Shown here one piece after another: positions 331-14,378 of a DNA stretch of 14,988 nt. Position 1 is the stretch's first letter, and each line of letters starts with the position of its first letter. The stretch spans positions 1 to 14,988 of the forward strand of contig JAQVRT010000011.1 of the NCBI GenBank assembly GCA_028700905.1. Direction: 5' to 3'. The notes under the pieces were generated by a model. That model was not told the origin of the DNA. It worked only from the letters and a program-made list of their open reading frames with translations, and did not search any database. Source of the DNA: Candidatus Iainarchaeum sp. (GTDB taxonomy: Archaea; Iainarchaeota; Iainarchaeia; Iainarchaeales; CSSED10-239). A program made the position numbers and the translations under genes.

Positions 331-719
331 TTATATTTTATTTTCTTTTTAGGGTTTGCAATTTTTAAGTTTTTAAAAACTTCTTTTGCATTTTCATTTC
401 CTTGAAGATATGTTTCTAGAGAAATATCTTGTGTTATACCTCTTTTTGATAAAAGTGTTATAAAATCACCAATATACATTTCTGCAAATTTAGCTGCAGA
501 TGAAAGGGTGTATTTTTCTTCAACAAAAAGTTTTATTGCAAGTTCTTTTTTTATTTCTAGCATTCCTTTTTTTATAGATTGTCTATATATTATTGATTTA
601 TCTATGTTTTCTATATTTGAAATATCAATGATCTTTTTTTCGATTTCTTCTTCTATTCTTAAGCTTATTAATTTTGATTTCATTTTTTCACCTATTAAAT
701 ATTTTATAATATTTTTCAA
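327..719 (-). CDS. Putative antitoxin: ribbon-helix-helix (CopG-like) N-terminal domain fused to a UPF0175/COG2886-type HTH domain
   Basis: 'KLISLRIEEEIEKKIIDISNIENIDKSIIYRQSIKKGM' fits the RHH strand-helix-helix pattern. 'ELAIKLFVEEKYTLSSAAKFAEMYIGDFITLLSKRGI' fits the UPF0175 pattern. An alternative start at the Met at 683 (MKSKLIS..) would leave a 4-nt gap after the PIN stop instead of a 32-nt overlap. It sits immediately downstream of the PIN gene on the same strand. Confidence 0.6.
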   Translation of the reverse strand: MKNIIKYLIGEKMKSKLISLRIEEEIEKKIIDISNIENIDKSIIYRQSIKKGMLEIKKELAIKLFVEEKYTLSSAAKFAEMYIGDFITLLSKRGITQDISLETYLQGNENAKEVFKNLKIANPKKKIKYN

Positions 720-1188
720 TTATTTCTTTTTTAAAAAACCCATTCTTAATTAATATATTAAAAGAGTTTATTGTTTGCTCTTTATTAATTATTTTTAAGT
801 CAAATAACATTTTCAAAATAGCTAATATTGGTAAATATTTTATATTTAATAAAATACATACATTTATTCCTTTTTTATCATCAATTAAAATAGGATAATT
901 TTTTTGTTTTGCAAGTGCAATTGCATGTAGTTCTCCTTCTCCTAATTTTGAAATATATTTTATATTTTCTATATTTGTTTTATTTGGATTTTCTATAATT
1001 ATTTTATTTTCAAAAACTAATTTTTCTATAATAAACGCATCTTTTTTATTTTTGATTTTTCCTTTTAATATTTCTTGATAAACTACTTCAGGTATAATGA
1101 TTTTAGTTAAAGGTAATAGATAATTATGCAGATTTGATCTAACTAATAAAATCAAACTTGATGAGTCTCCCACAACATATATTTTCAT
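688..1188 (-). CDS. PIN-domain protein of the DUF3368/COG2405 type (putative toxin ribonuclease)
   Basis: N-terminal 'IYVVGDSSSLILL' carries the first PIN acidic residue. 'KLGEGELHAIALAKQKNYPILIDDKKG' matches the GEAEAIALA...LLDD(R/K)K signature of the DUF3368 PIN subfamily that normally pairs with UPF0175 proteins. Confidence 0.65.
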   Translation of the reverse strand: MKIYVVGDSSSLILLVRSNLHNYLLPLTKIIIPEVVYQEILKGKIKNKKDAFIIEKLVFENKIIIENPNKTNIENIKYISKLGEGELHAIALAKQKNYPILIDDKKGINVCILLNIKYLPILAILKMLFDLKIINKEQTINSFNILIKNGFFKKEIIEKYYKIFNR

Positions 1189-1446
1189 ATGTATATTTTA
1201 CTCAATCTTTTTTTAAATGTATTGCTTTTTATGTTTTTGTATTACTAATATATTTTTATAGATTTTTCAAAAAAACCAGTAGATTTATTTGATCCTATGA
1301 CTTATGGTGAATCATACGCTCCTTTTGCTAAGAAAATTGAAGAAATTGAGAAAAAATAATTTTTCATCTATATTTTTTTTAAAAGATTAATTTATAAACT
1401 GTTTATTTCATAAATATGTATTAAATGTGTTTAATCATATTTAAAT

Positions 1447-1728
1447 ATGAATTGTGATATTATGTATGAAGGATATACTGTGGTTGGCCAAAGAGGTCAA
1501 ATAACTATCCCTAAGGATATAAGAGATAAAATAAATCTTAAAGAAAAAGATAAGTTATTAGTAAGGTTAAAAGAAAATAACTTAATTGTAGAAAAAATAA
1601 AAACCAAGAAAGATATAGAAAATTTAATGGTTGAAGGTTATAAAGCCTTAGCTAAAATAAATCAAGAAACTTTAAATGATTTTAAACATGTTGACGATGA
1701 GTCTGAATCTTTAATTGGTGATTATTAA
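1447..1728 (+). CDS. mazE: AbrB/SpoVT-MazE family antitoxin
   Basis: 'VVGQRGQITIPKDIRDKINLKEKDKLLVRLKENNLIVEKI' is a typical swapped-hairpin AbrB/MazE DNA-binding fold sequence. The stop overlaps the MazF start by 1 nt (TAATG at 1726-1730). The start could instead be the Met at 1462. Confidence 0.75.
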   Translation: MNCDIMYEGYTVVGQRGQITIPKDIRDKINLKEKDKLLVRLKENNLIVEKIKTKKDIENLMVEGYKALAKINQETLNDFKHVDDESESLIGDY

Positions 1729-2066
1729 TGGATATTAAAAAAGGAGAAATCTATCTAATTAATTTAGATCCTGTAATTGATTCTGAGCAAGGAAAAACTA
1801 GACCTTGCTTAATCATACAAAATAATATTGGTAATAAATATTCTCAAAATACAATTATTGCCTCTATAACTTCAAAGATAGATAAAGAATATCCCTTTCT
1901 AGTTAAAATAGATAAGGGGGTAGCTAATCTCCCAAAAGATAGTTTTGTGCAGTTAGATCAGATTAGAACTATTTCTGTTAAAAGAATTATTAAAAAAATA
2001 GGTTCTTTGCCAAAGGATATTATGCTAAAAATAAATGTTGCTTTAAAAAATAGTTTAGATTTATAG
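1728..2066 (+). CDS. mazF: MazF/PemK family endoribonuclease toxin
   Basis: 'KGEIYLINLDPVIDSEQGKTRPCLIIQNN...NTIIASITSKI...FLVKID...LPKDSFVQLDQIRTISVKRI..KIGSLP' matches the PemK/MazF consensus along its whole length. It is translationally coupled to the upstream AbrB-type gene. Confidence 0.85.
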   Translation: MDIKKGEIYLINLDPVIDSEQGKTRPCLIIQNNIGNKYSQNTIIASITSKIDKEYPFLVKIDKGVANLPKDSFVQLDQIRTISVKRIIKKIGSLPKDIMLKINVALKNSLDL

Positions 2067-2105
2067 CTATTTCTTACTTTTTAAACCTCTTTCTACTTAA
2101 TAATA

Positions 2106-2113
2106 TTTATAAA
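2106..2113 (+). promoter_or_regulatory. Candidate archaeal TATA box (TTTATAAA) for the aIF2-beta operon
   Basis: TTTATAAA ends 23 nt upstream of the ATG at 2137. This is consistent with a leaderless or near-leaderless transcript. TATA-like strings are frequent by chance in DNA this AT-rich. Confidence 0.3.
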
Positions 2114-2136
2114 CACTTCTAAACATATATTATATT

Positions 2137-2574
2137 ATGGTAAACAATGAAAAAGTAAAAGATAATTCTTTAGATTATAATTCTTTATTAGATAGACTTT
2201 ACATGTCTCTTCCAACAAAAACATTAGAAGACACAAGGTTTGAACTTCCTACAGTTGACTCTATAGTCCAAGGTAAACAAACTATTTGGAAGAACTTTTC
2301 AAAATGTGCAAAAGATTTAAAAAGAGAAGAATTACAAATGTATAAGTTTGTAATGAAAGAAATCTCTACATCTTCAACTATTGTTAATGGTACTTTAGTA
2401 TTAAACGGTATTTTTAATAATCAAAAAATGAATCAAATTTTAGAAAAATATTTGAAATTTTTTGTGCTTTGTTCTGCATGTAAAAAACCAGATACAGAGA
2501 TTGTAGTTCAAAATAATGTTAAGATATTAAAATGTACAGCTTGTGGAGCAATAAGCCCATTACCTAAGTTATAA
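2137..2574 (+). CDS. eif2b: Translation initiation factor aIF2 subunit beta
   Basis: Length of 145 aa is typical. There is a central eIF2-beta/eIF5 domain ('ELPTVDSIVQGKQTIWKNF....L.RE..Q.YKF...E') and a C-terminal C4 zinc ribbon 'VLCSACKKPDTEIVVQNNVKILKCTACGA'. Confidence 0.9.
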   Translation: MVNNEKVKDNSLDYNSLLDRLYMSLPTKTLEDTRFELPTVDSIVQGKQTIWKNFSKCAKDLKREELQMYKFVMKEISTSSTIVNGTLVLNGIFNNQKMNQILEKYLKFFVLCSACKKPDTEIVVQNNVKILKCTACGAISPLPKL

Positions 2575-2605
2575 ATCTTAAGTTTTTAAAATAAAGGTAC
2601 TTTTT

Positions 2606-2896
2606 ATGATTGGTAAAATACATGATGTGAGTGGAAATAAAATTTTTGCATCTTGTGATAAATCTTTAGTTGGGAAAACAATTATTACAGAGGATTTTGA
2701 AATTTATTTTTCTGAATCTTTTTATGGTGATAGATTACTTTCTAAAGAAGAAATTTTAAAGTATATTGATGGTTGTCATTCTGCAAATATTTTTGGAGAA
2801 AAAATCTGCAATTTACTTTTAGAGGAAAAAATAATTGTTAAAGAATCAATTATTTATATTGAAAAAATTCCTCATGTTCAAATTTATAAAGTTTAG
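2606..2896 (+). CDS. DUF424-family small archaeal protein (COG2412-like)
   Basis: The 96-aa pattern 'KIH..G.KIFASCDKSLVGKT.....FEIYFSESFYGD.LLSKEE.L..I....SANIFGE......LEEKII....I.YIEKIPHVQIY' matches the DUF424 family, which commonly sits beside aIF2-beta in archaea. Confidence 0.7.
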   Translation: MIGKIHDVSGNKIFASCDKSLVGKTIITEDFEIYFSESFYGDRLLSKEEILKYIDGCHSANIFGEKICNLLLEEKIIVKESIIYIEKIPHVQIYKV

Positions 2897-2902
2897 AGAG
2901 AA

Positions 2903-2907
2903 AGGAG
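2903..2907 (+). promoter_or_regulatory. Shine-Dalgarno-like AGGAG upstream of the aIF1A TTG start
   Basis: AGGAG lies at 2903-2907, 11 nt before the TTG at 2919. It is one of the few purine-rich GGAG motifs in an intergenic spacer of this window. Confidence 0.4.
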
Positions 2908-2918
2908 TTGATTAATTT

Positions 2919-3263
2919 TTGGAACCAAATACTGATAATACAAATATTAGATTAAAAACACCAAATAAAAAAGAACTTGAAATGTTTGGTGTGGTTACTC
3001 AATTAATGGGTGTTAATAATATTTCTATAATGTGTGAAGACGGAAAAGAAAGGATTTGTAGAATCCCTGGTAAAATGTTTAAACACATCTGGATTAAACA
3101 AGGAGATTTAGTAATTGTAAAATTATGGGATTTCCAACCTACAAAAGGAGATGTTGTTTGGAGATATTTAGGTTTCCAAGTAAATGCTCTTGAAAAACGT
3201 GGGCTTTTAAATGAAATGAATAAACACGCACAAAGTTCTACTGGAAATAGAACTAAATACTAA
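2919..3263 (+). CDS. eif1a: Translation initiation factor aIF1A (S1/OB fold)
   Basis: 'IRLKTPNKKELEMFGVVTQLMGVNNISIMCEDGKERICRIPGKMFKHIWIKQGDLVIVKLWDFQPTKGDVVWRY' matches the aIF1A/eIF1A consensus. An in-frame TAA at 2913 means the TTG at 2919 is the first possible start. The first ATG would delete the conserved N-terminal segment. Confidence 0.9.
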   Translation: MEPNTDNTNIRLKTPNKKELEMFGVVTQLMGVNNISIMCEDGKERICRIPGKMFKHIWIKQGDLVIVKLWDFQPTKGDVVWRYLGFQVNALEKRGLLNEMNKHAQSSTGNRTKY

Positions 3264-3265
3264 GG

Positions 3266-4015
3266 ATGTCTTTTAAGATGATTGAAAAAAGAAAAGTTGA
3301 AGGTTATGTGTTTGATAATAGAACACATGAAGCTATTTTTAAACTTTCAAAGAACGGTATAATGGATACTATAGATTCTCCAATATCAAGTGGAAAAGAA
3401 GCTATAACTTTTCTTGGTTATCTAAATGATACTCCTCTTGCTTTAAAGATATATAAAGTAGAAACTTCTGATTTTAAAAACATGGATAAATACATTATTG
3501 GAGATCACAGATTTAAAAGAATCTCTAAAGATAAAAGAGAGTTATTTTTAATCTGGGCTTCAAAAGAATATAAAAATCTAACTTTGGCTTTAAGAAATAA
3601 TGTTAAGGTTCCAATTGTTATTGCAAAAGAAAAAAATATAATTGTTATGTCTTTTTTAGGTTCAAAAGACGGTATTCCTTTTCCTAAACTTTCAGAGGTG
3701 AAATTTTCTTTTGATGTGGTATATCCACAGATAATTGAAAACTATGCAAAAATGTTATATGGTGCAAAGATTGTTCATGCAGATTTTTCTGCATTTAATA
3801 TTTTAATAAATCCAGAAACAGAAGAAATTACAATTATTGATATGGGTCAAGCTGTAGTTTATAGTCATCCTTTATCTAAAGATTTTTTAAAAAGAGATAT
3901 AATTTCTATTACTGATTTTTTAAATAAAAAATTTAAAAATAAAAATATTACTTATGAATCTTTTTTAGAAGATTTAAAAATTAAAAAAGAAGAGCTTTAT
4001 GGAAGAAATAATTAG
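3266..4015 (+). CDS. rio1: RIO-type serine/threonine protein kinase (Rio1-like, no N-terminal wHTH)
   Basis: Residues follow the RIO kinase consensus order: 'ISSGKEAITF', 'ALKIYK', 'EYKNL', catalytic/metal loop 'VHADFSAFNILI' and 'IIDMGQAV'. It lies between aIF1A and a KH protein, as in many archaea. Confidence 0.85.
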   Translation: MSFKMIEKRKVEGYVFDNRTHEAIFKLSKNGIMDTIDSPISSGKEAITFLGYLNDTPLALKIYKVETSDFKNMDKYIIGDHRFKRISKDKRELFLIWASKEYKNLTLALRNNVKVPIVIAKEKNIIVMSFLGSKDGIPFPKLSEVKFSFDVVYPQIIENYAKMLYGAKIVHADFSAFNILINPETEEITIIDMGQAVVYSHPLSKDFLKRDIISITDFLNKKFKNKNITYESFLEDLKIKKEELYGRNN

Positions 4016-4565
4016 AGTTGGTCATAACAGACTTCCTGTCTTAATTGGACCAAATGGAACTGTTAAAAAACAGATTGAAAAGAAAACAAAAACAAAGATA
4101 GATATTGATTCTCATTTAGGAGAAGTTACAATTTCTTCTGATCAATCTTTTTTTGAAGTGCATACTGCAAAGAATATTATTTCTGCAATTGGAAGAGGGT
4201 TTTCTCCAGAGAATGCTTTTAATCTTTTAAAAGATGATTTTGTACTTGAAATAATTCCTCTTGAAGATTTTGTTAAAAACTCAAGACATAGACATACTCA
4301 AATAAAGGGAAGAGTTATTGGTAGAGAAGGAAGAATTAAAAAATTAATTGAAAGTAAATTTTCTTCAATTATTTCTGTTTATGGAAAAACAGTTTCAATA
4401 ATTGCATCTGAAGATAATATTAAAGATGCAAGAGATGCTGTTGAAAAAATACTTGCTGGTGCTAAACATTCAACTGTAATTAAAGCAATCAAAAGAAGTT
4501 CTCTTCTTGAAGGTTATAAAGAAGTTAAAGAAGAAGAAAAAATTGATGATATTGATTTTTCTTAA
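3999..4565 (+). CDS. KH-domain RNA-binding protein, archaeal Dim2/Pno1-like
   Basis: Two KH GXXG-type segments are present ('LIGPNGTVKKQIEKKTKTKIDID' and 'GRVIGREGRIKKLIES'). The 17-nt overlap with the RIO kinase gene implies co-translation. Confidence 0.8.
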   Translation: MEEIIRVGHNRLPVLIGPNGTVKKQIEKKTKTKIDIDSHLGEVTISSDQSFFEVHTAKNIISAIGRGFSPENAFNLLKDDFVLEIIPLEDFVKNSRHRHTQIKGRVIGREGRIKKLIESKFSSIISVYGKTVSIIASEDNIKDARDAVEKILAGAKHSTVIKAIKRSSLLEGYKEVKEEEKIDDIDFS

Positions 4566-4580
4566 AAATAAGAAATATTT

Positions 4581-5426
4581 ATGGATGCTCTAGATTTTAT
4601 AAATAGTTTAGAAAAAATATTAATTTCTGAAAAAAATAAAAGTTTAAAACTTTTTAAAAAACAAAAATCAGATAATCATAGAATTCCTATTTTTCATTTT
4701 CATACTCTTGATTATCCTAAATTATCTTCTTACTTAAATAATTTTTCTTCAAAAGAACTTAATAGTATTTTAAATGTTTATAAAACTCTTTCTTTTAATC
4801 AAAAAAATTTATTTTTACTTGCAATTGATAACAATAGTTATAATTATAAATTTTCTAAAAAAATTAATTCCTTTAATTCTCTTGAAAGAGAGCTTTGGAG
4901 GATTAAAAAAGGAATTATTCCTAAGGGGTTAATTTTTCATACTGGTTATGCAACTTGTGACGAAACTATATTTGGTTTTATTAGAGCTTTTAAACAAGAT
5001 TCTGTTTTTTCAACAAAAATAAATATTGATGGAGAAAATAGAAGAGTTTTTATAAAAACTTTTGTTGGACTTTCTAAAAATCCTTCAGAAAATTTAGGTT
5101 TTTCTCCTTTGATTTTAGATCCTAAGAGTTTTAAAATATATAATCTTGCAGGCATTTCAAATGTTTTTTCTCTAAAAGACACTTCTAAAATAAAGCTTAG
5201 TAGTAGAAGAGATTCTATTCTTTCTTTAAGAACAGATCCTAAATCTAAAAATTTAGTTCCTGCTTTAAAAGAAGAAATGAAAAATTATCTTTCAAGATTT
5301 AAAGAAAGGACTTCTTTTAAAGAAAGACATAAAGAACCATTTATTTTAAAAGAAATTAAAAAAGAATCTTTAAAAGAAAAAAAGAATCTTTTTTCAAGAA
5401 TTAAGAAAAAGTTTGTAAGAAAATAA
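4581..5426 (+). CDS. Hypothetical protein, 281 aa, with a lysine-rich C-terminal tail; no family recognised
   Basis: A long ORF in the same orientation, 16 nt after the KH gene. Composition is coding-like. The C-terminal ~60 aa are highly basic ('KERTSFKERHKEPFILKEIKKESLKEKKNLFSRIKKKFVRK'). It is followed by a perfect palindrome/terminator. Confidence 0.55.
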   Translation: MDALDFINSLEKILISEKNKSLKLFKKQKSDNHRIPIFHFHTLDYPKLSSYLNNFSSKELNSILNVYKTLSFNQKNLFLLAIDNNSYNYKFSKKINSFNSLERELWRIKKGIIPKGLIFHTGYATCDETIFGFIRAFKQDSVFSTKINIDGENRRVFIKTFVGLSKNPSENLGFSPLILDPKSFKIYNLAGISNVFSLKDTSKIKLSSRRDSILSLRTDPKSKNLVPALKEEMKNYLSRFKERTSFKERHKEPFILKEIKKESLKEKKNLFSRIKKKFVRK

Positions 5427-5477
5427 ATCATTCTTTTAAAAGAATGATTATTCTTTTAAAAAAACAATCATTTTTTA
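5426..5477 (+). terminator. Two overlapping hairpins plus a T-tract downstream of the 281-aa ORF
   Basis: A perfect 24-bp palindrome AATCATTCTTTT|AAAAGAATGATT lies at 5426-5449. A second hairpin has arms ATGATTATT (5444-5452) and AACAATCAT (5463-5471), pairing 8 of 9 bp, and is followed by TTTTTT. Confidence 0.5.
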
Positions 5478-5500
5478 AATAAAATGGTTCTATTATACTT

Positions 5501-6070
5501 ATGCTTAAAGAATGGTCTCAATATACTGGTTTTAAAGTTCTCTCTTATTTTATAGAAAATCCAAATACAAAGATTCATTTAAATGAACTTGCTAGAAAAT
5601 TAAATGTAAGTGCAAGTAGTGTTTTAAAATACTGTAATAGTTATGTTAAAGATACTGTTCTTTTTAAAGAGAAAAAATCAAATTCTGTTTTTTTTAGTCT
5701 TAATAATGATAATGTTTTTGTAAAATCTTTTAAAAAATCATATTTTATTGGAAGTATATTAAATTCTTCTTCTTTTTCTAAATTTATTGAAGAAAATAAA
5801 TCTAGTTTAGTTTCATTAATCCTTTATGGTGGATATTCTTCTGGTAATTATTCAGAAAATAGCGATGTTGATATATTAATAATTTATAATTCTGATAAGA
5901 TAAATTATAATTCAATTTTAAATCTTGAAAATGTTTTTAAAAAAGAGATTAATATAACAAAGTTATCTTTAAATCAATGGGTTAAAAAATTAAATCAAAA
6001 GGATGAATTTATAACTTCTATTTTAAATAATCATGTTTGTTTGTGGGGTGCTAATATTAATGACTCTTGA
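5501..6070 (+). CDS. Winged-HTH + minimal nucleotidyltransferase (MNT) domain protein, putative HEPN-cognate antitoxin
   Basis: N-terminal wHTH-like 'IHLNELARKLNVSASSVLKYCNSY'. NTase core 'LILYGGYSSGNYSENSDVDILIIY' fits hG[GS]x9-13 D-x-D. The 3' end overlaps the HEPN reading frame. Confidence 0.75.
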   Translation: MLKEWSQYTGFKVLSYFIENPNTKIHLNELARKLNVSASSVLKYCNSYVKDTVLFKEKKSNSVFFSLNNDNVFVKSFKKSYFIGSILNSSSFSKFIEENKSSLVSLILYGGYSSGNYSENSDVDILIIYNSDKINYNSILNLENVFKKEINITKLSLNQWVKKLNQKDEFITSILNNHVCLWGANINDS

Positions 6071-6514
6071 AGAATGTTTAGAAAAAAAATTAATTAAAAA
6101 AGACAATAATACTTTTGAAAGAATTAATGGTTCACTTAAAGTTTCAAGACATTTTTTAGAAAGAGCAGAAGGGAGTTTTAATATAGATTATTATGATACT
6201 TCTTATTTAATGTCTAATAATAGTTTATTTCATTCAGCAAGAGCTTTATTGTTTAATAAAGGATATACAGAAAGAAGCCATTATTGTTTAATAAAGGATA
6301 TACAGAAAGAAGCCATTATTGTTTAATTACTTTTTTAAAAGAAGAATATAGTAAATATCCTCAAGTTTTAAAATATTTAAATCTATTAAACATGTATAGA
6401 TCTTTTAGAGAATCAATTTAATATTCTGGAGATTTATGTTCTAAAGAAGATTCTTTAGGAATTAAAAAAAGTGCTTATGAATTTTTATCAATTGTTGAAG
6501 ATATTTTAAAATGA
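6060..6514 (+). pseudogene. HEPN-domain protein gene (COG2250/PF05168-like), disrupted by a 35-bp tandem duplication and an in-frame TAA
   Basis: From the ATG at 6060: 'MTLEECLEKKL...SLFHSARALLFNKGYTERSHYCLI' is HEPN-like, and then the frame breaks. Removing one 35-bp repeat copy continues the protein as '..YCLITFLKEEYSKYPQVLKYLNLLNMYRSFRESI*YSGDLCSKEDSLGIKKSAYEFLSIVEDILK*' in the frame of codon 6317, ending at TGA 6512-6514. The TAA at 6419-6421 falls inside the conserved R-x4-Y segment. Confidence 0.7.
6246..6327. repeat. 35-bp perfect tandem duplication (2 full copies plus a 12-bp partial third copy)
   Basis: TTATTGTTTAATAAAGGATATACAGAAAGAAGCCA occurs at 6246-6280 and identically at 6281-6315. 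TTATTGTTTAAT recurs at 6316-6327. The unit length is not a multiple of 3. Confidence 0.95.
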
Positions 6515-6543
6515 TTGTTCTCTTTAAAAAAAACAATCATTTT
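6508..6543. terminator. Hairpin between the convergent HEPN remnant and the AsnB-Dph6 gene (candidate bidirectional terminator)
   Basis: Arms AAAATGATTGTT (6508-6519) and AACAATCATTTT (6532-6543) form a 12-bp perfect stem with a 12-nt loop. A-rich and T-rich runs flank it. The stop codons of both convergent reading frames lie inside the stem arms (TGA 6512-6514 on plus; TCA 6537-6539, read as TGA, on minus). Confidence 0.5.
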
Positions 6544-8645
6544 TCTTCTAAACCTAATTTTAAAATATCTAAATAACCAGTAATCTCATTTTCCATAATT
6601 GGGTTTGCACTTGTGATTACTATTTTTTGTTTATAAAGTGGAGCATCAAGAACAATACTTTCATATTCTCCTCCTTCTCCTGCAACATTAATGCCTTTCT
6701 TTTTATTAATTATCTTTAAGTTAATGACGTCTTCTTTAGTTAAAACTTTTCCAAGCCAATTTTCTGAAAGTCCTTGTCCTGCAATCTTTACAATCATTAC
6801 TTTGAAATTATCATCAATAAGTTCTTTTAAAACACCTTCTTGTGTTTTGTTCCAAAGAGGAGAAAACATTCTTAAACCAAGTTCATTACAAACATCTTGT
6901 ATTCTTTCTCTTTGATAATTACTTTTTATAGCTCCAGTAATTATTCCTTGAAGAGAATATTTTTCTTTTGCTTTAAAGAGTAATCTTTTAAGGTCTTTAA
7001 GTTCTTCTTCTTTAATTCCTTTTGTTTTTTGAAAAACAAAAGGCACTTCTAATGCTTGAGACTGAAGAGAAAGTATTTTTTCATCAATTTTTTGAAACAT
7101 ATAAGAATCTGGGTTTTCAGTGACCATTGTCATTAAGCATGCAATCTTATAATTTTGTCTTGCCATAATGTGATATGCAAGGTTTGAATCTTTTCCACCT
7201 GAGAAAAGACATCCTAAAGTAAGGTTTTCTTTTTTTGAAAGTTTTTTTAAAAATTCACCTTTTTGTTTAACATTATTTTCTTTTGCTATTTTTTCAATCA
7301 TTTTATCAAATCCACTTCCGTATTGTGCTGCTGTTTTTTTCCTCTTGTAATCTTCTTTTAAAAGACCAATTTCTTTTCCAATCTCTCTTAAGATTACTTT
7401 ATTTTCTTCATTATTAATTTTTTGTTTGTCTGTAAGATTAAAAGATTCTTCAATAACTTCTTTATCAAGATATGGAAATCTTGCTTCTATGTTATTATTT
7501 GTACAAACCACATCTTCTCTATAAAGATCATTTTCATGCATTTGGTATAAAAGGTTTAAAGTATCTTTTAAAAGATTTGTTGATTCTTTAAATCTTGAAT
7601 ATCCTGCAAATATTTCATCAGAACCTAGTCCTGAAAGAATAACTTTACAACCATCTTTTCTTGCTTTTTTTGAAGCAAAGTATATAGGTAAGGACACACC
7701 AATTTTTATAGGGTTTGATGACTCTACTCTCTCTATAAGTAAAGGTAATGTTTTTTCAATTTCTGTTTTAGAAATTTTTATTTTTTCAATAGAAAAACCA
7801 TATTCTTTTTCTGTTCTTAAAACATTTGAAAGATCTTTAGGGTTTAAAACATCTTGAGAATATGCAAAATACCCTTTAAAAGGAATTTTATTATCTTTTA
7901 ATATTTTTGCAATAACTAAAGAATCTATTCCTGAACTATATAAAAGAGCAATTTTTTGTTTTCCAGAAGCTCTTTTTAAAATTGCATTTTTTAGTTTTTC
8001 ATATACTTTCTCTTTTGTTGTTTTTCTATTTTCTATTTTAAAGAATGGTATTTGTTTAAAACTAATTTTATTTTTTAAAACATTATAAGAAAGTTCTTTT
8101 CTAGGATCTAGAAATTCAATTTTTTTAAAACCTGCATTTTCTAAAACTTTTTTTTCTGAAGCAAACCCAAATGATTTTTCTTCTATTGAATACCATAAAG
8201 GCTTTATCCCTAATATATCTCTTCTTAAATAAATTTCTCTACCATCATAATAACATATAGCATAAGGTCCATTAATTTCAGTAAATATTTTTTTTCCAAT
8301 CTTTATTATTGCTTTAAGTAAAAAATCAGAATCATTTTTTGAATCTATTTTGTATTTAGAAGAAAGTTCTTTGTAATTATATATTTCACAATTAGATAAA
8401 AGTACTTTTTTATCAATAATAATAGGTTGTGAAACATTTCCTGTTATAGAAAGTAAGTTGTGTCCAAAAACCACATCGTCAGGGATGTTTTTATGTTCTA
8501 TTTCTTTAATCTCTTTAAAATAACTACACTTATCATTACAAAAAACTCCATATCCATCAAGACCTCTTTTTTCTAAAGTTTTAAAAGCAGAGATTATTTC
8601 TTTTTTAGTTTCTTTAAGGTTTACAAAACCAATTATTGAGCACAT
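6537..8645 (-). CDS. Fusion protein: class-II (Ntn) glutamine amidotransferase + asparagine-synthetase-B-like PP-loop synthetase + Dph6/MJ0570-type diphthine-ammonia ligase (DUF71, Diphthami_syn_2) domain
   Basis: aa 1-~445 (nt ~7311-8645): 'MCSIIGF' (Cys2 nucleophile), 'NCEIYNYKEL', 'NGPYAICYYDGREIYLRRDILGIKPLWY', PP-loop 'LLYSSGIDS', 'ILSGLGSDEIFAGY', 'REDVVCTNNNIEARFPYLD'. aa ~474-702 (nt 6540-~7226): 'GCLFSGGKDSNLA', 'YMFQ', 'GIITGAIKSNYQRERIQDVCNELGLRMFSPLWNK', 'GINVAGEGGEYESIVLDAPLY', matching the MJ0570/Dph6 ATP pyrophosphatase family end to end. It is a single uninterrupted ORF with a K/E-rich linker at aa ~446-473. Confidence 0.8.
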   Translation of the reverse strand: MCSIIGFVNLKETKKEIISAFKTLEKRGLDGYGVFCNDKCSYFKEIKEIEHKNIPDDVVFGHNLLSITGNVSQPIIIDKKVLLSNCEIYNYKELSSKYKIDSKNDSDFLLKAIIKIGKKIFTEINGPYAICYYDGREIYLRRDILGIKPLWYSIEEKSFGFASEKKVLENAGFKKIEFLDPRKELSYNVLKNKISFKQIPFFKIENRKTTKEKVYEKLKNAILKRASGKQKIALLYSSGIDSLVIAKILKDNKIPFKGYFAYSQDVLNPKDLSNVLRTEKEYGFSIEKIKISKTEIEKTLPLLIERVESSNPIKIGVSLPIYFASKKARKDGCKVILSGLGSDEIFAGYSRFKESTNLLKDTLNLLYQMHENDLYREDVVCTNNNIEARFPYLDKEVIEESFNLTDKQKINNEENKVILREIGKEIGLLKEDYKRKKTAAQYGSGFDKMIEKIAKENNVKQKGEFLKKLSKKENLTLGCLFSGGKDSNLAYHIMARQNYKIACLMTMVTENPDSYMFQKIDEKILSLQSQALEVPFVFQKTKGIKEEELKDLKRLLFKAKEKYSLQGIITGAIKSNYQRERIQDVCNELGLRMFSPLWNKTQEGVLKELIDDNFKVMIVKIAGQGLSENWLGKVLTKEDVINLKIINKKKGINVAGEGGEYESIVLDAPLYKQKIVITSANPIMENEITGYLDILKLGLEEK

Positions 8646-8671
8646 AGTTTTTTTGTAATTTAAAGGTTAGG

Positions 8672-8677
8672 TATAAA
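8672..8677 (-). promoter_or_regulatory. Candidate TATA box (TTTATA on the minus strand) for the AsnB-Dph6 gene
   Basis: TATAAA at 8672-8677 reads TTTATA on the coding strand, 27-32 nt upstream of the start codon at 8645. This is consistent with a leaderless mRNA. Confidence 0.3.
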
Positions 8678-8771
8678 TACTTATTGATACAAATATTCTT
8701 TAATACTTTTTATTTTGAAAAGTTTAGAAAGATTTAAGATAACCTTTTTAAATCTTTTTAAGTATATTATA

Positions 8772-8780
8772 TATATAAAT
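8772..8780 (+). promoter_or_regulatory. Candidate TATA box (TATATAAAT) for top6B-top6A
   Basis: It lies 19-27 nt upstream of the ATG at 8799, in the divergent intergenic region shared with the AsnB-Dph6 gene. Confidence 0.3.
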
Positions 8781-8798
8781 ATATTTTAGTGATACTTT

Positions 8799-10526
8799 AT
8801 GAGTAATGAAAAAACAACAAAACAAGAAACTCAAGTTTCAAAAGATGGAATAGATGCTAATGTTTTATTCTCTGAATTTAAAGAACATTCAGTTGCTGAC
8901 TTTTTTAAAAAAAACAGACAAATGTTAGGACTTTATGGAAAACAAAGAACTTTAACAACAATTATTCACGAACTTGTTACAAATTCTTTAGATGCTTGTG
9001 AAGAAGCAGGTATCTTACCTGAGATTGAAGTTAAGATTTCAGAGATTGGAGAAGAATACTATGAAATATCTGTAATGGATAATGGTCCTGGTATTCCAGA
9101 AAACAAAATTGGTTCTGCTTTAGGAAAACTTCTTGCTGGAACTAAATTTCATAGGTTAGTTCAGACAAGAGGACAACAAGGAATTGGTGTTTCAGGAATT
9201 ATTTTATTTTCTCAAATTACAACTGGAAAACCAACAAAAGTTATTTCTGGAACTTCAAAGGAAAGAGCTGTTTCTTTAGAAATAACAATTGATTCAAAAA
9301 CTAATTCTCCAAAAATGACAAATAAAGTATATTTAGAAAAAAAATTTAGAGGTACTGGAATAAAAGCTAAATTTAAAGAAATCCAGTATAAGAAAGGACA
9401 AGGTTCTGTTGATGAATATTTAAGAAGAACTGCTATTGCAAATCCTCATGCAACTATAGTTTTCCAAGATCCTTTCCAAGAAGTTACAAAATATGAAAGA
9501 ATAGTTAAAACTTTACCAAAGATACCAAAACAAGTAAAACCTCACCCTAGAGGAGTTACTGTTGATGAATTATTATCTCTTGCAAGATATACTTCTGCAA
9601 GAAAAATATCTTCTTATCTTATGTTAACTTTTGATAGATTTGGTCAAACTGCAGTTGATTCAATTGCAAAAATGATTCATTTTGATATTAATAAAGATCC
9701 AAGAAAAATAACTTGGGAAGAAGCAGAAGAAATTGTTTCTGCTATCAAGAAAACTAAATTTATTGCACCAAATACAAATAACTTAGTTCCAATTGGTGAA
9801 AATTTTATTGAAAAGTCTTTACAAACAATTGTTGAGCCTGAATTTTGCTTTGTGTATACAAGAAAGCCTTCTGTTTACAAAGGAGGATATGCTTTCCAAG
9901 TTGAAGTTGCTGTTGCTTTTGGAGGTAATGCAGGACGTCTTGTAAGTGTTTCTTCTCCTAAGGCAAAAAACAGAAAAGATTCTCTTGATGATCAAGAAGA
10001 TACTAAAGAAGTTAGAGTTTCTGAAATAATAAGATATGCAAATAAATCTCCTCTTTTATTTGATGCAGGAGGTTGTGCAATTACAAAAACTGTTCAATCT
10101 ATTGATTGGAAAAGATATGGAATTCATAATTTTGAATCTGCTCCAGTAACTGTTTTTGTAAATTTAATTTCTGTGCATATCCCTTACACTTCAGCTGGTA
10201 AATCTGCAATTGCTGATGAAGAAGAAATTTTAGTTGAAACAAAGCTTGCTTTAATGGATGTTTCAAGAAGACTTGGAAGATATATTATTGATAAAAAGAA
10301 AGAAGCTGAAAAATTAGAAAAAAGAAAAGTCTTTGCAAAATATGCTCCTGAAATTGTTCAAGCCCTTTCAAGAATAACAGGTGCTGATGCTACTAAACTT
10401 CAAAAGAATTTAGATAAAATGGTTCTTGAAAAATTAAAAATGGAAGATTTAGAAGATCAAAAGCAAAAAGCAAAAGATGACAAGATAGAAGAAGAAATTG
10501 AAGAAGAAGAAGAAATTGAAGAATGA
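8799..10526 (+). CDS. top6B: DNA topoisomerase VI subunit B (GHKL ATPase)
   Basis: 'SVADFFKKNRQMLGL', Bergerat-fold motifs 'ELVTNSLDA', 'DNGPGIP', 'GQQGIGVSG', and the transducer region. It has an acidic low-complexity C-terminal tail (EEEIEEEEEIEE) and is followed directly by top6A. Confidence 0.95.
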   Translation: MSNEKTTKQETQVSKDGIDANVLFSEFKEHSVADFFKKNRQMLGLYGKQRTLTTIIHELVTNSLDACEEAGILPEIEVKISEIGEEYYEISVMDNGPGIPENKIGSALGKLLAGTKFHRLVQTRGQQGIGVSGIILFSQITTGKPTKVISGTSKERAVSLEITIDSKTNSPKMTNKVYLEKKFRGTGIKAKFKEIQYKKGQGSVDEYLRRTAIANPHATIVFQDPFQEVTKYERIVKTLPKIPKQVKPHPRGVTVDELLSLARYTSARKISSYLMLTFDRFGQTAVDSIAKMIHFDINKDPRKITWEEAEEIVSAIKKTKFIAPNTNNLVPIGENFIEKSLQTIVEPEFCFVYTRKPSVYKGGYAFQVEVAVAFGGNAGRLVSVSSPKAKNRKDSLDDQEDTKEVRVSEIIRYANKSPLLFDAGGCAITKTVQSIDWKRYGIHNFESAPVTVFVNLISVHIPYTSAGKSAIADEEEILVETKLALMDVSRRLGRYIIDKKKEAEKLEKRKVFAKYAPEIVQALSRITGADATKLQKNLDKMVLEKLKMEDLEDQKQKAKDDKIEEEIEEEEEIEE

Positions 10527-10571
10527 TTCTTTTTTTAAAAAAATAAAACTTTATAAAAATGTGATTAAGAT

Positions 10572-11711
10572 ATGGCAAACCAAAAACCAAAAAAACAAGA
10601 ACTTGAAAAGCACGAAGTTGAGGGTGCAAAAGAAATCGGTAAAAGAGTGTATGAAATTGCAGAAAATATTGTTCATCAAATAGAACATGAACATACTCCA
10701 ACTTTTTCAACAAAGGTAAGAGGACTTTCAAATGTTTATTTTGATCAAGATAAAGGTTTTATACAACTTGGAGATAAAACTGTTACAAGGCCTTTCTTAA
10801 ATCTTGGTGCTGCAAGAAAATTTATGCAAACTGTTTTAGTCACAGAAAAATGTAATGAATATTTAAAACATTCAAAAACAGCATCAATCAGAGAAATTTA
10901 TTATGAGCTTAAGCACACTGTTGCAAAAACTAATGAAAATACTTTTGATGGTCAAGAAGAATCTAATGATGTAATTGTTGATATTGAACATTCTGTTTCA
11001 ACAATTAGAGAAAAATTAGGACTTCAAGCTGATCCTAAAGGTTCACTTTATGGTGACATTACTTTAATTGATAGAAAACACAACAATGATGAGTTTAGTT
11101 GTAAAAACCTTGGAAGAGGTGGATGGTCTATCATGTCCAGAATTGAGCCTGATGAAATTGAAATTAAAGAAGTTAATGCTGATTTTGTTTTAGTTGTAGA
11201 GACATCTGCGATGTATGGTAGATTAATTGAAGAAAATTATCCTAAAAAACATAACGCTATATTAATTGGAACTTCAGGTCAAGCAGCAAGAGGTGCAAGA
11301 AGACTTGTTCACCGTTTAAGATATGAGTTTAATCTTCCAATTGTTGTTTTCACTGATGGGGATCCTTATGGTTGGTATATTTATTCTGTAATTAAGAGTG
11401 GTTCTATGGCTCTTGCAGCTCACTCTAAGTTTTTAGCAGTTCCTGATGCAAAGTATGTTGGTATGACTTTAACAGATGTTGAAGAATACGGTCTTCAAGC
11501 AGTAACTGAAAAAATGAAAGATGGGGATGTTAAGAGAGCAAAAGAGCTTATGTCTTATGATTGGTTTAAATCTCCTGCTTGGCAAAAAGAACTAAAGCTT
11601 GCAATTGATAAAAAGATCAGAATAGAGCAGCAGGCTCTTGCAAACAAATCTTTAGATTTTGTTGCTAAAAAGTATTTGCCAGAAAAAATAGATAATGAGA
11701 TTTTCTTATAG
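10572..11711 (+). CDS. top6A: DNA topoisomerase VI subunit A (Spo11 family)
   Basis: The catalytic-Tyr segment is 'ASIREIYYELKH'. Toprim acidic residues are in 'VLVVETSAMY' and 'VVFTDGDPYGWYIY'. Length of 379 aa is typical. Confidence 0.95.
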   Translation: MANQKPKKQELEKHEVEGAKEIGKRVYEIAENIVHQIEHEHTPTFSTKVRGLSNVYFDQDKGFIQLGDKTVTRPFLNLGAARKFMQTVLVTEKCNEYLKHSKTASIREIYYELKHTVAKTNENTFDGQEESNDVIVDIEHSVSTIREKLGLQADPKGSLYGDITLIDRKHNNDEFSCKNLGRGGWSIMSRIEPDEIEIKEVNADFVLVVETSAMYGRLIEENYPKKHNAILIGTSGQAARGARRLVHRLRYEFNLPIVVFTDGDPYGWYIYSVIKSGSMALAAHSKFLAVPDAKYVGMTLTDVEEYGLQAVTEKMKDGDVKRAKELMSYDWFKSPAWQKELKLAIDKKIRIEQQALANKSLDFVAKKYLPEKIDNEIFL

Positions 11712-11733
11712 ATTTTTTTAAAAAAGAAAAAAA

Positions 11734-12326
11734 ATGATTATGGATAGAGATTTGCTTAAAAGAGCTTTATTTATTTTAAGTGTTTCTTCCATTGTTACTT
11801 TTTCTACTCTTAAGATTGATCAAAATAAAAAAAGAGAAACTGTAAAAAAATATCTCTTTGAAAACCAAGCTAATTTTTTAACAAAAAATATCAATTAACA
11901 AAAGAAGATAGTGCTTTTGTTGTTAAAGAAATTTCATCTATTTTAAAAAATCCAGATGTTTTATTTAATGCTAAAAGTTTTATTGAGCATATTGATTATT
12001 ATAGAGCAGGAACTTTAACTAAAAAATCATGTTATCCTGCTTTTAATAGATTTTATGAAGCTTTTACAAATTCTTTGTCAAACCAGAAATTAGATTCTCT
12101 TTATCCTGTTTTAGAAAAATATTCTGCTTTTAAAAACTTAGAAAAAAATAAAAAAGCATCAAATATTGTTTTTAAAAGTAAATTTAGAGATTATTTTTTT
12201 GAAAAATATATAGAAGTTAAAAAACCTAAACCTAAATTAAATCCTTTTAATACAAAAAGTCCTAAAAATTATTTTACAAAAGAAGTTTCTAAAAAGAAAC
12301 CTATTGTTAGAAAAAAGATAATTTAA
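11734..12326 (+). pseudogene. Membrane-anchored, lysine-rich hypothetical protein gene split by a -1/+2 frame break at an A6 run (frameshifted gene, or a homopolymer sequencing error)
   Basis: The frame-1 ORF 11734-11898 (MIMDRDLLKRALFILSVSSIVTFSTL...FLTKNIN*) has an N-terminal TM/signal anchor. Frame 0 is open from 11874 to 12326 (..KKYQLTKEDSAFVVKEISSILKNPDVLFNAKSFIEHIDYYRAG...KKPIVRKKII*). One extra A in the run at 11883-11888 joins them into a ~197-aa ORF. The ORF track only reports the TTG-initiated tail at 12075-12326. Confidence 0.5.
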
Positions 12327-12361
12327 AAACATATAAATATCTTTTCATCTACTCTTTTATC

Positions 12362-12372
12362 TATATATAAAA
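12362..12372 (+). promoter_or_regulatory. Candidate TATA box (TATATATAAAA) for acs
   Basis: It ends 18 nt upstream of the ATG at 12391. No SD-like motif lies in between, so the transcript is possibly leaderless. Confidence 0.3.
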
Positions 12373-12390
12373 TGAAAAATAAGATTATTT

Positions 12391-14325
12391 ATGAGTGATG
12401 AAAAAAAATATTACCCTTCAAAAGATTTTCAAGAAAAAGCATATATTAAATCAATGGAAGAATATCAAAAGATATATGATGCTTCTATAAAAGATCCAGA
12501 AAGCTTCTGGGCAGATGCTGCAAAAGACATAGTGTGGTTTAAACCATATTCTTCTGTCTTTCAGTGGGAAGATAAAGAAAAATATCTTTACTCTTGGTTT
12601 AAGAACGGAAAATTAAATGTTTCTTACAACTGCTTAGATAGACATTTAGAAAAAAATGCAGACAAAATAGCTTTAATCTTTCAAGGGGAAGAAGAAAGTA
12701 ATGTAAAAAAATACACTTACAGAGAGCTGCACTTAGAAGTTTCAAGATTTGCAAATGTTTTAAAGAAGCATGGTATAAAGAAAGGAGATAGAGTTTCTAT
12801 CTATATGCCAATGATACCTGAATTTCTAATTTCTCTTTTAGCATGTGCAAGAATAGGTGCAATTCATTCTGTTGTTTTTGCAGGATACAGCACACAAACA
12901 ACAAAAGAAAGAATTGAGTTTGCAAAATCAAAAATGCTTATAACAGCTGATGGTTCTCTAAGAGCTGGAAAGAAAATAAACTTTAAGGAAGAAGTTGATA
13001 AAGCAATTACTGATATAAATGATATTGAAAGTATATTAATTGTTAGAAATATAGATATTCCTTTAACTTTAAAAGAAAATGAGTATATTTATCAAGAAGA
13101 AATTAAAGCTCCAGATATCTTGGACACTTGCGCGCCAGAGGAAATGGATTCTGAAGATCCTTTATTTATTTTATTTAATTCAGGAACTGTTGAAAAACCA
13201 AAAGGTACACTTCACACAAATGCTGGTTATTTGGTATACACAAAGGAGACTTTTAAATATATTTTTAATTATCATAAAGATGATGTTTATTGGTGTACAG
13301 CAGACATAGGCTGGATTACAGGGCACTCATACTTAGTTTATGGTCCTCTTGCAAATGCTGCAACAGTTTTAATGTATGAAGGAATTCCAACCTTTCCAGA
13401 TAATGAAACATACTGGAGAATTATTGAAAAACATAAAGTAAATATTTTTTATACAGCTCCAACAGTTATAAGATCTTTAATGAGATATGGAACTGATCCG
13501 GTAGAAAAACATGATCTTTCATCCTTAAAACTTTTAGGGTCAGTTGGTGAGCCTATAAATCCTGAAGCATGGGTTTGGTATTATGAAAACATTGGTAAAA
13601 GTAATTGTCCAATAGTTGATACTTGGTGGCAAACAGAGTCTGGTGGATTTTTAATAGCACCATTTCCAGGAGCCTTTCCTCTAAAACCAGGCTTTGCAAC
13701 AAAACCTTTTTTTGGTATTGATGCTGATGTCTTAAGAGAGGATGGTTCTAAAGCTGATGTTAATGAACCAGGTTCTGTGGTTATTAAAAAACCATGGCCA
13801 GGAATGATGAGAACAATTTATGGAGAACATCAAAAATATTTAGACATCTATATTTCAAAATATCCTGGTTATTATTTCTGTGGAGATAGAGGAAAAATAG
13901 ATGAAGATGGTTATTTTTTCATAATTGGAAGAATGGATGATGTGATTAAAGTTTCAGGACATCGTTTAGGTTCTGCAGAAGTTGAATCTGCTTTAGTTTC
14001 AAATAAAAATGTTGGTGAAGCAGCAGTTGTTCCTTTCCCTCATGAAATAAAAGGACAAGCTCTTTATGCTTTTATTATTTTAAGAGCAGGAATAAAACCT
14101 TCTGATGATTTAGTAAAAGAATTAAGAGAGCATGTTGCAAAGGAAATAGGTCCAATTGCAAAACCTGATAAAATACAGTTTGTAGAAGCTCTTCCAAAGA
14201 CAAGTAGTGGTAAGATCATAAGAAGGATCTTAAGAGCAATTGCTTATGACTCTGAAGATTATGGAGACCTTTCAACACTTTACAATCCAGAGGTTATTGA
14301 AAAAATTAAATCTAAAAAGATTTAA
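12391..14325 (+). CDS. acs: Acetyl-CoA synthetase (AMP-forming, acetate-CoA ligase)
   Basis: Full-length 644-aa match to the Acs consensus: 'FWADAAKDI.WFKP', 'WFKNGKLNVSYNCLDRHL', 'YTYRELHLEVSRFANVLKKHGIKKGDRVSIYMPMIPE', 'YWCTADIGWITGHSY', 'DTWWQTESGG', 'DEDGYFFIIGRMDDVIKVSGHRLGSAEVESAL', 'LPKTSSGKIIRRILR'. Confidence 0.95.
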   Translation: MSDEKKYYPSKDFQEKAYIKSMEEYQKIYDASIKDPESFWADAAKDIVWFKPYSSVFQWEDKEKYLYSWFKNGKLNVSYNCLDRHLEKNADKIALIFQGEEESNVKKYTYRELHLEVSRFANVLKKHGIKKGDRVSIYMPMIPEFLISLLACARIGAIHSVVFAGYSTQTTKERIEFAKSKMLITADGSLRAGKKINFKEEVDKAITDINDIESILIVRNIDIPLTLKENEYIYQEEIKAPDILDTCAPEEMDSEDPLFILFNSGTVEKPKGTLHTNAGYLVYTKETFKYIFNYHKDDVYWCTADIGWITGHSYLVYGPLANAATVLMYEGIPTFPDNETYWRIIEKHKVNIFYTAPTVIRSLMRYGTDPVEKHDLSSLKLLGSVGEPINPEAWVWYYENIGKSNCPIVDTWWQTESGGFLIAPFPGAFPLKPGFATKPFFGIDADVLREDGSKADVNEPGSVVIKKPWPGMMRTIYGEHQKYLDIYISKYPGYYFCGDRGKIDEDGYFFIIGRMDDVIKVSGHRLGSAEVESALVSNKNVGEAAVVPFPHEIKGQALYAFIILRAGIKPSDDLVKELREHVAKEIGPIAKPDKIQFVEALPKTSSGKIIRRILRAIAYDSEDYGDLSTLYNPEVIEKIKSKKI

Positions 14326-14345
14326 TTCTTTTTTTAAAATGATTT

Positions 14346-14374
14346 ATAATAGTGGTTATAATAACCACCATTAT
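14346..14374. terminator. Hairpin between convergent acs and porB-like genes (candidate bidirectional terminator)
   Basis: ATAATAGTGGTTAT (14346-14359) and ATAACCACCATTAT (14361-14374) form an inverted repeat with one mismatch. The core GTGGTTAT/ATAACCAC is perfect. T-runs flank it on both sides (14329-14335 and 14376-14380). Confidence 0.45.
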
Positions 14375-14378
14375 ATTT

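Follow-up and report, generated by a model that had tools for sequence, protein, structure and literature searches.

In the genome of Candidatus Iainarchaeum sp. (Iainarchaeota), a stretch of 14,988 nucleotides (contig JAQVRT010000011.1, positions 1 to 14,988; hereafter the window) carries at 6537-8645 on the minus strand one unbroken open reading frame (ORF) of 702 aa, running from ATG to TGA, in which a class-II glutamine amidotransferase (GATase) domain is followed by an asparagine-synthetase-type PP-loop domain and a Dph6/DUF71 diphthine--ammonia ligase domain. This architecture (GAT-II, then Asn_synthase PP-loop, then DUF71 in one archaeal polypeptide) places the protein in the AsnB–DUF71 fusion class. 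The reading favoured here, held with about even confidence, is that the protein is a diphthamide synthetase (Dph6) fused to an AsnB-derived module that generates ammonia, that glutamine is usable but not required as the ammonia source, and that the same polypeptide contains a second ATP-pyrophosphatase.

The three domains, all on the minus strand, are recognized independently by several profile collections. In Pfam, GATase_7 (aa 72-169, 7.6e-19) and GATase_6 (6.8e-14) together cover aa ~54-169, Asn_synthase covers aa 214-357 (3.7e-36), and Diphthami_syn_2 (PF01902) covers aa 479-696 (6.3e-58) with 196.3 bits against a cutoff of 23.2. The NCBIfam model for archaeal Dph6, TIGR03679, scores 240.4 bits, above its curated cutoff of 197.3, and the asparagine synthase model TIGR01536 scores 247.5 bits, about 20 bits short of its cutoff of 267.1; NF006949 gives 192.6 bits against a cutoff of 499. 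In a sequence search of the PDB, the C-terminus matches PF0828 (3.5e-52) and PH1257 (2.2e-49), and residues 56-424 match Escherichia coli AsnB. Taken together with the alignments and structural comparisons below, the layout comprises the GATase domain of the N-terminal nucleophile (Ntn) type (aa 1-200; 8046-8645), the asparagine-synthetase-type PP-loop ATP-pyrophosphatase domain (aa 210-445; 7311-8018), a structured linker rich in Lys and Glu (aa 446-476; 7218-7310) and the Dph6 domain (aa 477-702; 6540-7217). The protein is identical to NCBI MDD4049711.1, "diphthine--ammonia ligase [Candidatus ainarchaeum sp.]". An earlier note on this DNA, made from the sequence alone, had described a single uninterrupted 702-aa ORF that fuses these domains, with a C-terminal part of the PF01902 type and two PP-loop-type ATP sites; every motif it quoted is present, the two sites being SSGIDS and SGGKDS, and only the strand has to be corrected to minus, as the plus-strand translation of 6537-8645 is riddled with stops.

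The same note had raised the possibility of a chimeric join or a missed stop in the linker, for which reason the authenticity of the junction (nt 7218-7310) was examined. The 90% cluster of the protein holds 11 member sequences, named diphthine--ammonia ligase by NCBI and asparagine synthase by JGI, and its representative alone occurs on 35 contigs, the longest of 840 kb. A homology search with the full protein returned 764 clusters at E ≤ 1e-10, and 119 of the best 120, which were inspected, are full-length (~670-740 aa) proteins, 41-98% identical to the query and built of the same domain trio, that align without a break across aa 446-476. In all, more than 190 independent fused homologs from several phyla are continuous over the linker. 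An AlphaFold2 model built on a 45-sequence alignment shows a single compact body, with a mean predicted local distance difference test (pLDDT) score of 92.3 and a predicted template-modelling score (pTM) of 0.88, in which the linker forms two helices at pLDDT of at least 88; because these helices are modelled confidently and the pTM is high, the protein is predicted to be one rigid body rather than beads on a string. Nothing in the window favours the explanation that two neighbouring genes were fused by misassembly or by an overlooked stop or frameshift, although in one relative, from Methanococcoides vulcani (L032), the halves are read in different frames that meet precisely within the linker. 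Against the continuous ORF, the occurrence of the identical protein and its cluster on many independent contigs, the fused homologs and the confident linker model, the probability of such an artefact is close to nil, and a chimeric join or missed stop is effectively excluded.

The C-terminal domain bears every sequence and fold hallmark of Dph6. It is 41-42% identical to PF0828 and PH1257 over the C-terminal 226 aa, and Foldseek superimposes the C-terminus of the model on both with template-modelling (TM) scores of 0.92-0.95 and a root-mean-square deviation of 1.5-1.8 Å; no solved structure covering all three domains was among the Foldseek matches. When the Dph6 signature residues listed by de Crécy-Lagard et al. 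(PMC3541065) were placed by phmmer alignment to 3RJZ, residues S514, Y515, E548, Y577, Q578, E657, E660 and E662 were found to correspond to PF0828 S44, Y45, E78, Y103, Q104, E183, E186 and E188. The second PP-loop, SGGKDS (aa 482-487; 7185-7202), and the signature motif EGGEYE (aa 657-662; 6660-6677), which contains the equivalents of PF0828 E183/E186/E188, are invariant across the fused family. At PF0828 A149, where the family consensus is Ala, the window protein has Gly623. By homology, this domain would adenylate the diphthine carboxylate on aEF-2 and amidate it with ammonia.

Stand-alone archaeal Dph6 proteins (PF0828 = 3RJZ/3RK1, PH1257 = 2D13 and MJ0570; TIGR03679) share the PP-loop and all signature residues checked, and differ from the window protein in lacking its 476-aa N-terminal extension; in addition, the fused forms conserve M494, N498, Y499 and R579, where stand-alone Dph6 has Ala, Gly, His and Ala/Lys, respectively. 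Eukaryotic Dph6, as in yeast YLR143W, likewise combines DUF71 with extra domains that have been proposed as a source of ammonia (PMC3541065), but there the extras are two C-terminal RidA/YjgF-like domains rather than an N-terminal AsnB module.

For the N-terminal half, residues were numbered on the E. coli AsnB sequence, with key alignments cross-checked against the phmmer alignment to PDB 1CT9. Residues 1 to ~470 of the model superimpose on AsnB and asparagine synthetase (ASNS) structures with TM scores of 0.76-0.79 (0.79 to 1CT9). The protein begins with MCSIIGF, so that the Cys nucleophile directly follows the initiator Met; this Cys2 (8640-8642) is Cys in 117 of 119 close homologs. The equivalents of AsnB Cys1, Arg30, Asp33, Asn74, Glu76 and Asp98 are invariant or nearly so in the 119 fused homologs, the conserved residues of the window protein being Cys2, R27, D30, N85, E87 and D105. 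The glutamine-recognition network is nevertheless incomplete: its Asn, Glu and Asp are present, but the position of E. coli Arg49 is occupied by Leu64 (8454-8456), with Leu in 119/119 homologs, and Asn85-Cys86-Glu87 (8385-8393) stands for Asn74-Gly75-Glu76, the Gly being replaced by Cys in 117/119. In human ASNS, the corresponding Arg-48 is the member of this network that is placed to contact the substrate (PMC6748925). In the clade of the window, where catalytic and interface residues are both conserved, the GATase is live-looking.

The middle domain combines a strictly conserved ATP site with the loss of a residue that asparagine synthetases need. Equivalents of AsnB Asp351/Glu352, Asp384, Arg387 and Lys449 are kept in the 119 homologs, and those of Lys449 (K437), Arg387 and Glu352 are invariant in the larger set of fused proteins, 187 of 194 of which have a canonical first PP-loop (SGG[ILV]DS). 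By contrast, in the segment SGLGSDE (aa 338-344; 7614-7634), Leu340 takes the place of AsnB Glu348 (human Glu-364), the glutamate needed for aspartate activation, and this position is Leu in 117 of the 119 homologs. Among 187 fused proteins it reads L in 156, S in 5, I in 4, M, N and T in 3 each, V and F in 2 each, and A, G and Y in 1 each, with 6 unreadable, so that E, D or Q never occurs in the 181 readable cases. In human ASNS, neither E364A nor E364Q shows activity, even when NH4Cl is supplied, and Glu-364 was judged "required for catalytic activity" (PMC6748925); this residue forms part of the wall of the ammonia tunnel at its synthetase end (PMC11615228). Because the essential Glu348 is lost while the ATP site is strictly conserved, the middle domain is predicted to be an active ATP-pyrophosphatase, neither a relic nor a canonical asparagine synthetase. 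Columns at least 95% conserved make up 22% of the middle domain and 23% of the Dph6 domain, and the AsnB-like module is evidently under strong purifying selection. The earlier note had taken the first PP-loop, SSGIDS (aa 237-242; 7920-7937), as a hint that the synthetase half is repurposed. This argument has been dropped, as SSG is a minority variant within a family whose consensus is SGGIDS (SGG in 113 of 119 relatives); the strong evidence of repurposing is the family-wide loss of Glu348 and Arg49.

Compared with known enzymes, the N-terminal half shares with E. coli AsnB (1CT9) and human ASNS (6GQ3) the two-domain fold, Cys1, Asn74/Glu76/Asp98, the SGGxDS PP-loop and the D351/E352, D384, R387 and K449 positions, and departs from them in Arg49->Leu, Gly75->Cys and Glu348->Leu, in its score below the TIGR01536 cutoff, and in having the linker and Dph6 where AsnB has its C-terminal ~100 residues. 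On sequence grounds it is most improbable that it works as a standard asparagine synthetase. AsnB-type PP-loop domains are known to adenylate carboxylates different from aspartate in beta-lactam synthetase (1JGT/1MBZ), carbapenam synthetase (1Q15) and TsnB9 (7YLZ), which have the fold in common (TM 0.6-0.74) at an identity of only 13-17%, and none of which is fused to Dph6. These enzymes are not known to have Glu at the 348 position.

The GATase domain, in turn, has been lost or inactivated repeatedly within the family. It is wholly absent, leaving Asn_synthase and Dph6 only, in L025 (482 aa), L026, L028 (500 aa), L021, P0229, P0247, P0255 and P0260, and no GATase was detectable elsewhere in the same locus in L021, L025, L026 and L028. 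In other cases the domain persists in a dead form: P0013 starts with MGRII… and has a full-length domain with Cys1->Gly, L022 starts with MTRILG…, and L032 starts with MGRIAG…, while L023 (Methanohalophilus sp. RSK) lacks a Cys1 motif and retains nothing more of the domain than a GATase_7 remnant below threshold. The window clade, represented by a metagenome-assembled genome of the Iainarchaeota within DPANN, keeps an intact Cys-GATase, in contrast to the degenerate, Cys1-less versions of Methanohalophilus sp. RSK and M. vulcani. Even the copy in L019 (9728-11635), although syntenic with the window, starts with MFKLIGFVN… and has lost ~90 GATase residues, so that in L019/P0140 only this N-terminal relic and the last ~50 residues of the domain are left; from P0013 to L019/P0140, the GATase decays stepwise within one sub-clade, and the interface residues decay in step. 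Since the nearest neighbour of each defective form is an intact-GATase protein, the cases (L019/P0140 and P0013; L021/P0229; P0247; P0260; L025/L026/P0255; L028; L022/L038; L023; L032) indicate that the GATase was lost or inactivated independently at least six times. All of these forms retain 100% of the catalytic residues in both PP-loop domains. The connection between the domains also varies: besides L032, with its parts in different frames, L052 has the Dph6 and Asn_synthase-like parts as separate neighbouring genes.

The consequences of GATase loss for the rest of the protein were followed by comparing 165 intact-GATase proteins with 13 GATase-defective sequences, with 33 stand-alone Dph6 proteins for reference. 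There are 74 columns at least 95% conserved among the intact proteins, and of these the defective sequences retain a mean fraction of 0.95 within Dph6 and of 0.85 within the middle domain. Middle-domain losses cluster at Y375, D378, E387 and R389, which are at least 95% conserved where the GATase is intact and decay in independent GATase-less lineages. The interface segment YREDVVCTNNNIEA (aa 375-388; 7482-7523) holds Y375, R376, D378 and E387, with R389 following it. Human Glu-414, the equivalent of E387, is a conserved glutamate at the interface of GATase and synthetase (PMC6748925). R376, which corresponds to AsnB R387, is invariant whether the GATase is intact or lost. In the linker and Dph6 domain, only N474, M494, N498, Y499 and R579 are specific to the fusion relative to stand-alone Dph6, and among these N474, N498 and, less so, R579 have disappeared from most lineages with a defective GATase but persist in matched intact neighbours. 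After GATase loss, N498 changes to Gly and R579 to Lys, Ala or Ser, which are the states of stand-alone Dph6; R579 directly follows the signature residues Y577 and Q578 (6909-6917 for the three). This pattern is indirect and comes from few lineages, but it suggests a coupling of the GATase not only to the middle domain but also to Dph6, for which we know of no earlier evidence.

Neither the architecture nor the idea of glutamine dependence is new. The AsnB–DUF71 fusion was described in 2012 in Methanohalophilus mahii, Methanosalsum zhilinae and 'Ca. Nanosalinarum' (de Crécy-Lagard et al., 2012, Biol Direct 7:32; PMC3541065, Fig. 2C), which are likewise archaeal and have the identical domain order, and from this fusion it was already proposed that the GATase provides Dph6 with glutamine-derived ammonia. 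As a reviewer of that paper, L. Aravind raised the question of which of the two PP-loop domains consumes the ammonia, and of the role that the Asn-synthetase-like domain plays (PMC3541065). The active-site residues of the AsnB half, unexamined in that work, are compared in the present analysis. The earlier note had not recognized the architecture as a described one, and its suggestion of novelty fails, by a condition that the note itself had set, because the fusion was published in 2012, is widespread, and the exact protein is already annotated as diphthine--ammonia ligase; as first stated, with architecture, hypothesis and annotation all pre-existing, the finding adds little.

In a scan of GTDB species representatives, which gave 80 loci, each from a different assembly, the fused form was found in DPANN (Iainarchaeota, Woesearchaeota, Nanoarchaeota, Altiarchaeota and Nanosalina) and in Halobacteriota (Methanolobus, Methanohalophilus, Methanococcoides, other Methanosarcinales and Methanospirareceae), and stand-alone Dph6 in most other archaea, some Woesearchaeota included. 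Homologs in Methanolobus, Methanohalophilus, Methanococcoides and Nanosalina are 30-41% identical to the window protein. One fused homolog, P0149 (1005 aa), has an extra ~370 aa N-terminal to the GATase, which could be a further fusion or an artefact of gene calling or assembly. The proposal of the earlier note that a bifunctional enzyme compensates for gene loss in a reduced genome was set aside because Methanosarcinales, with normal-sized genomes, share the fusion. An exhaustive search with the N-terminal 470 aa gave 333 representatives (50% clusters) at E ≤ 1e-30, and a Dph6 domain is present in 54 of the best 148 of them. Stand-alone AsnB-like relatives occur in Methanobacteriaceae, Methanobrevibacter, Methanocella and ANME-1/Methanophagales (L030, L035, L072, L079, L036, L037, L033); in these proteins Glu348 is replaced by Gln, and Arg49 mostly by Leu. 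No adjacent dph6 was seen beside the copies in Methanobacteriaceae, ANME-1 and Methanocella; for another stand-alone protein, P0129, the neighbourhood ends at a contig edge. These genes look like a family of archaeal amidotransferases that probably go under the name of asparagine synthase in annotations.

In the mechanism proposed here, the N-terminal Ntn-type GATase would hydrolyse an amide donor, probably glutamine, and the ammonia released would cross a putative AsnB-type interdomain tunnel and reach the Dph6 site within the rigid three-domain body, where diphthine-AMP would react with it to give diphthamide. The middle domain would most likely adenylate a carboxylate other than aspartate, also consuming ammonia. 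The glutamine route would be facultative, and relatives that have no GATase presumably run on free ammonia. As related lineages have repeatedly discarded the GATase, its supply of ammonia is regarded as accessory. Thus, the glutamine-dependent diphthamide synthetase put forward in the earlier note remains the best reading of the fusion and gains some new support from the covariation of GATase and Dph6, but its glutamine dependence is kept only in a facultative sense.

Several observations weigh against this proposal. The repeated loss of the GATase means that the glutamine route is not essential, and stand-alone Dph6 in most archaea works without an AsnB module. Arg49, a substrate-contacting residue, is Leu in all 119 homologs, and therefore free L-glutamine is not assured as the donor. 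A plain contact between domains could account for the way in which N474, N498 and R579 covary with the GATase. No dph2, dph5 or EF-2 genes were found in the 15-kb window or in 31 related loci. Lastly, no biochemistry on any archaeal Dph6 or on the fusion protein was found in the literature; yeast YLR143W is the only Dph6 with experimental validation, and a 2021 review states that the archaeal dph6 assignment "awaits experimental confirmation".

Among the competing explanations, one holds that the protein is truly bifunctional, with the N-terminal two domains forming a working glutamine-dependent asparagine synthetase whose GATase is shared with Dph6. This would be the "both" version of the 2012 hypothesis, and it fits the JGI annotation as asparagine synthase, the AsnB fold (TM 0.79 to 1CT9), the score only 20 bits under the TIGR01536 cutoff, the conservation of the residues that hold beta-aspartyl-AMP (equivalents of D351/D367, D384/D400 and R387/R403) together with K449, and the genome papers on DPANN in which "asparagine synthase AsnB" is one of a small number of amino-acid genes reported as present or expressed. 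It has to be set against a Glu348 position that is never acidic in the 181 readable of 187 proteins, when the human E364A/Q variants are dead, and against the loss of Arg49. In addition, the nearest stand-alone relatives, with Gln at 348, belong to Methanobacteriaceae, ANME-1 and Methanocella, and the Methanobacteriales at least form Asn-tRNA by transamidation and need no AsnB. We consider a bifunctional enzyme unlikely. The absence of any channelling to Dph6 appears similarly doubtful. In that case the GATase would feed the middle PP-loop domain only, Dph6 would run on free ammonia like its stand-alone counterparts, and the fusion would merely co-express two ATP-pyrophosphatases that both consume ammonia. 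The residues most coupled to the GATase do belong to the classical AsnB interface of the middle domain; Dph6 keeps 95% of its conserved core once the GATase is gone; and GATase-less fusions persist, alongside the split neighbouring genes of L052 and the different frames of L032. What speaks for a link to Dph6 is that N498 and R579 in that domain and N474 in the linker track the GATase across independent lineages, with N498 and R579 reverting to stand-alone states, and that the high pTM indicates a fixed arrangement.

The middle domain might also be a catalytically silent conduit or an ATP sensor, which relays ammonia and activates the glutaminase. A hydrophobic residue does replace Glu348 at the tunnel end, and the conserved ATP site could serve an allosteric activation of the glutaminase. 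Yet the PP-loop, E344, R376 and K437 are 100% conserved in variants that have no GATase, where there would be neither ammonia to relay nor a glutaminase to activate, and this explanation is accordingly rated as quite improbable.

The surroundings of the gene are those of an AT-rich archaeal contig (~25% GC), with genes for aIF2β, aIF1A, a Rio kinase, a KH protein, topoisomerase VI B and A, and acetyl-CoA synthetase. When the ORFs within ±6 kb of the fusion gene were clustered for 30 related loci and the window, no recurring neighbour (dph2, dph5, EF-2 and asnS were sought) was found beyond a GTPase-like ORF in 5 loci. Among the loci compared, the window is syntenic only with L019, with the order aIF2β, DUF424, aIF1A, Rio, KH, orf281, the fusion gene, Top6B and Top6A in both, and with Top6B 79% identical. 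The first part of this order is a cluster for translation and ribosome biogenesis (aIF2β, DUF424, aIF1A, Rio kinase and a KH/KRR1-like gene) at 2137-4565 in the window and, with the order kept, at 12672-15251 in L019. The 281-aa ORF at 4581-5426 (plus strand) has no Pfam match, and the ORF at the same syntenic position in L019 is 36% identical. A 113-aa ORF at 14379-14720 (minus strand), also with no Pfam match, is conserved in L019 (68%) and L006 (50%), and by eye it resembles the C-terminal part of the beta subunit of 2-oxoacid:ferredoxin oxidoreductase. Three toxin-antitoxin-like pairs lie inside the window within a span of ~6 kb (327-2066 and 5501-6326): a UPF0175-family ORF (327-719, minus strand) that overlaps a 166-aa ORF with no Pfam match (688-1188, minus strand), a MazE and PemK/MazF pair (1447-1728 and 1728-2066, plus strand), and a nucleotidyltransferase with a helix-turn-helix domain followed by a HEPN protein (5501-6070 and 6033-6326, plus strand). 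tRNA and Rfam scans of the window gave no matches.

The residue-level and comparative results sharpen the question raised by the reviewer in 2012, namely which PP-loop uses the ammonia, and make it testable, and the fusion family would be a good system for a first biochemical test of an archaeal Dph6. A broader proposal, possible but held only tentatively, is that the AsnB-like module represents a distinct archaeal amidotransferase subfamily, fused in DPANN and Methanosarcinales and free-standing in Methanobacteriales, ANME-1 and Methanocella, in which the PP-loop domain may perform an ATP-dependent amidation that does not yield asparagine, possibly on a translation-related substrate, and in which the donor of the GATase, with its Arg49->Leu and Gly75->Cys changes, may differ from free L-glutamine. 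In two studies of DPANN genomes (PMC10266531; PMC11606122), "asparagine synthase AsnB" is listed among the very few genes of amino-acid biosynthesis that are present or expressed; if these AsnB genes are the fusion, the asparagine-making capacity assigned to the organisms may be an annotation artefact. "asnB" calls in metabolic reconstructions of DPANN and Methanosarcinales warrant caution. If the subfamily proposal is true, the "asparagine synthase" of DPANN reconstructions would have been misannotated, and a second modification would be tied by the fusion to the synthesis of diphthamide.

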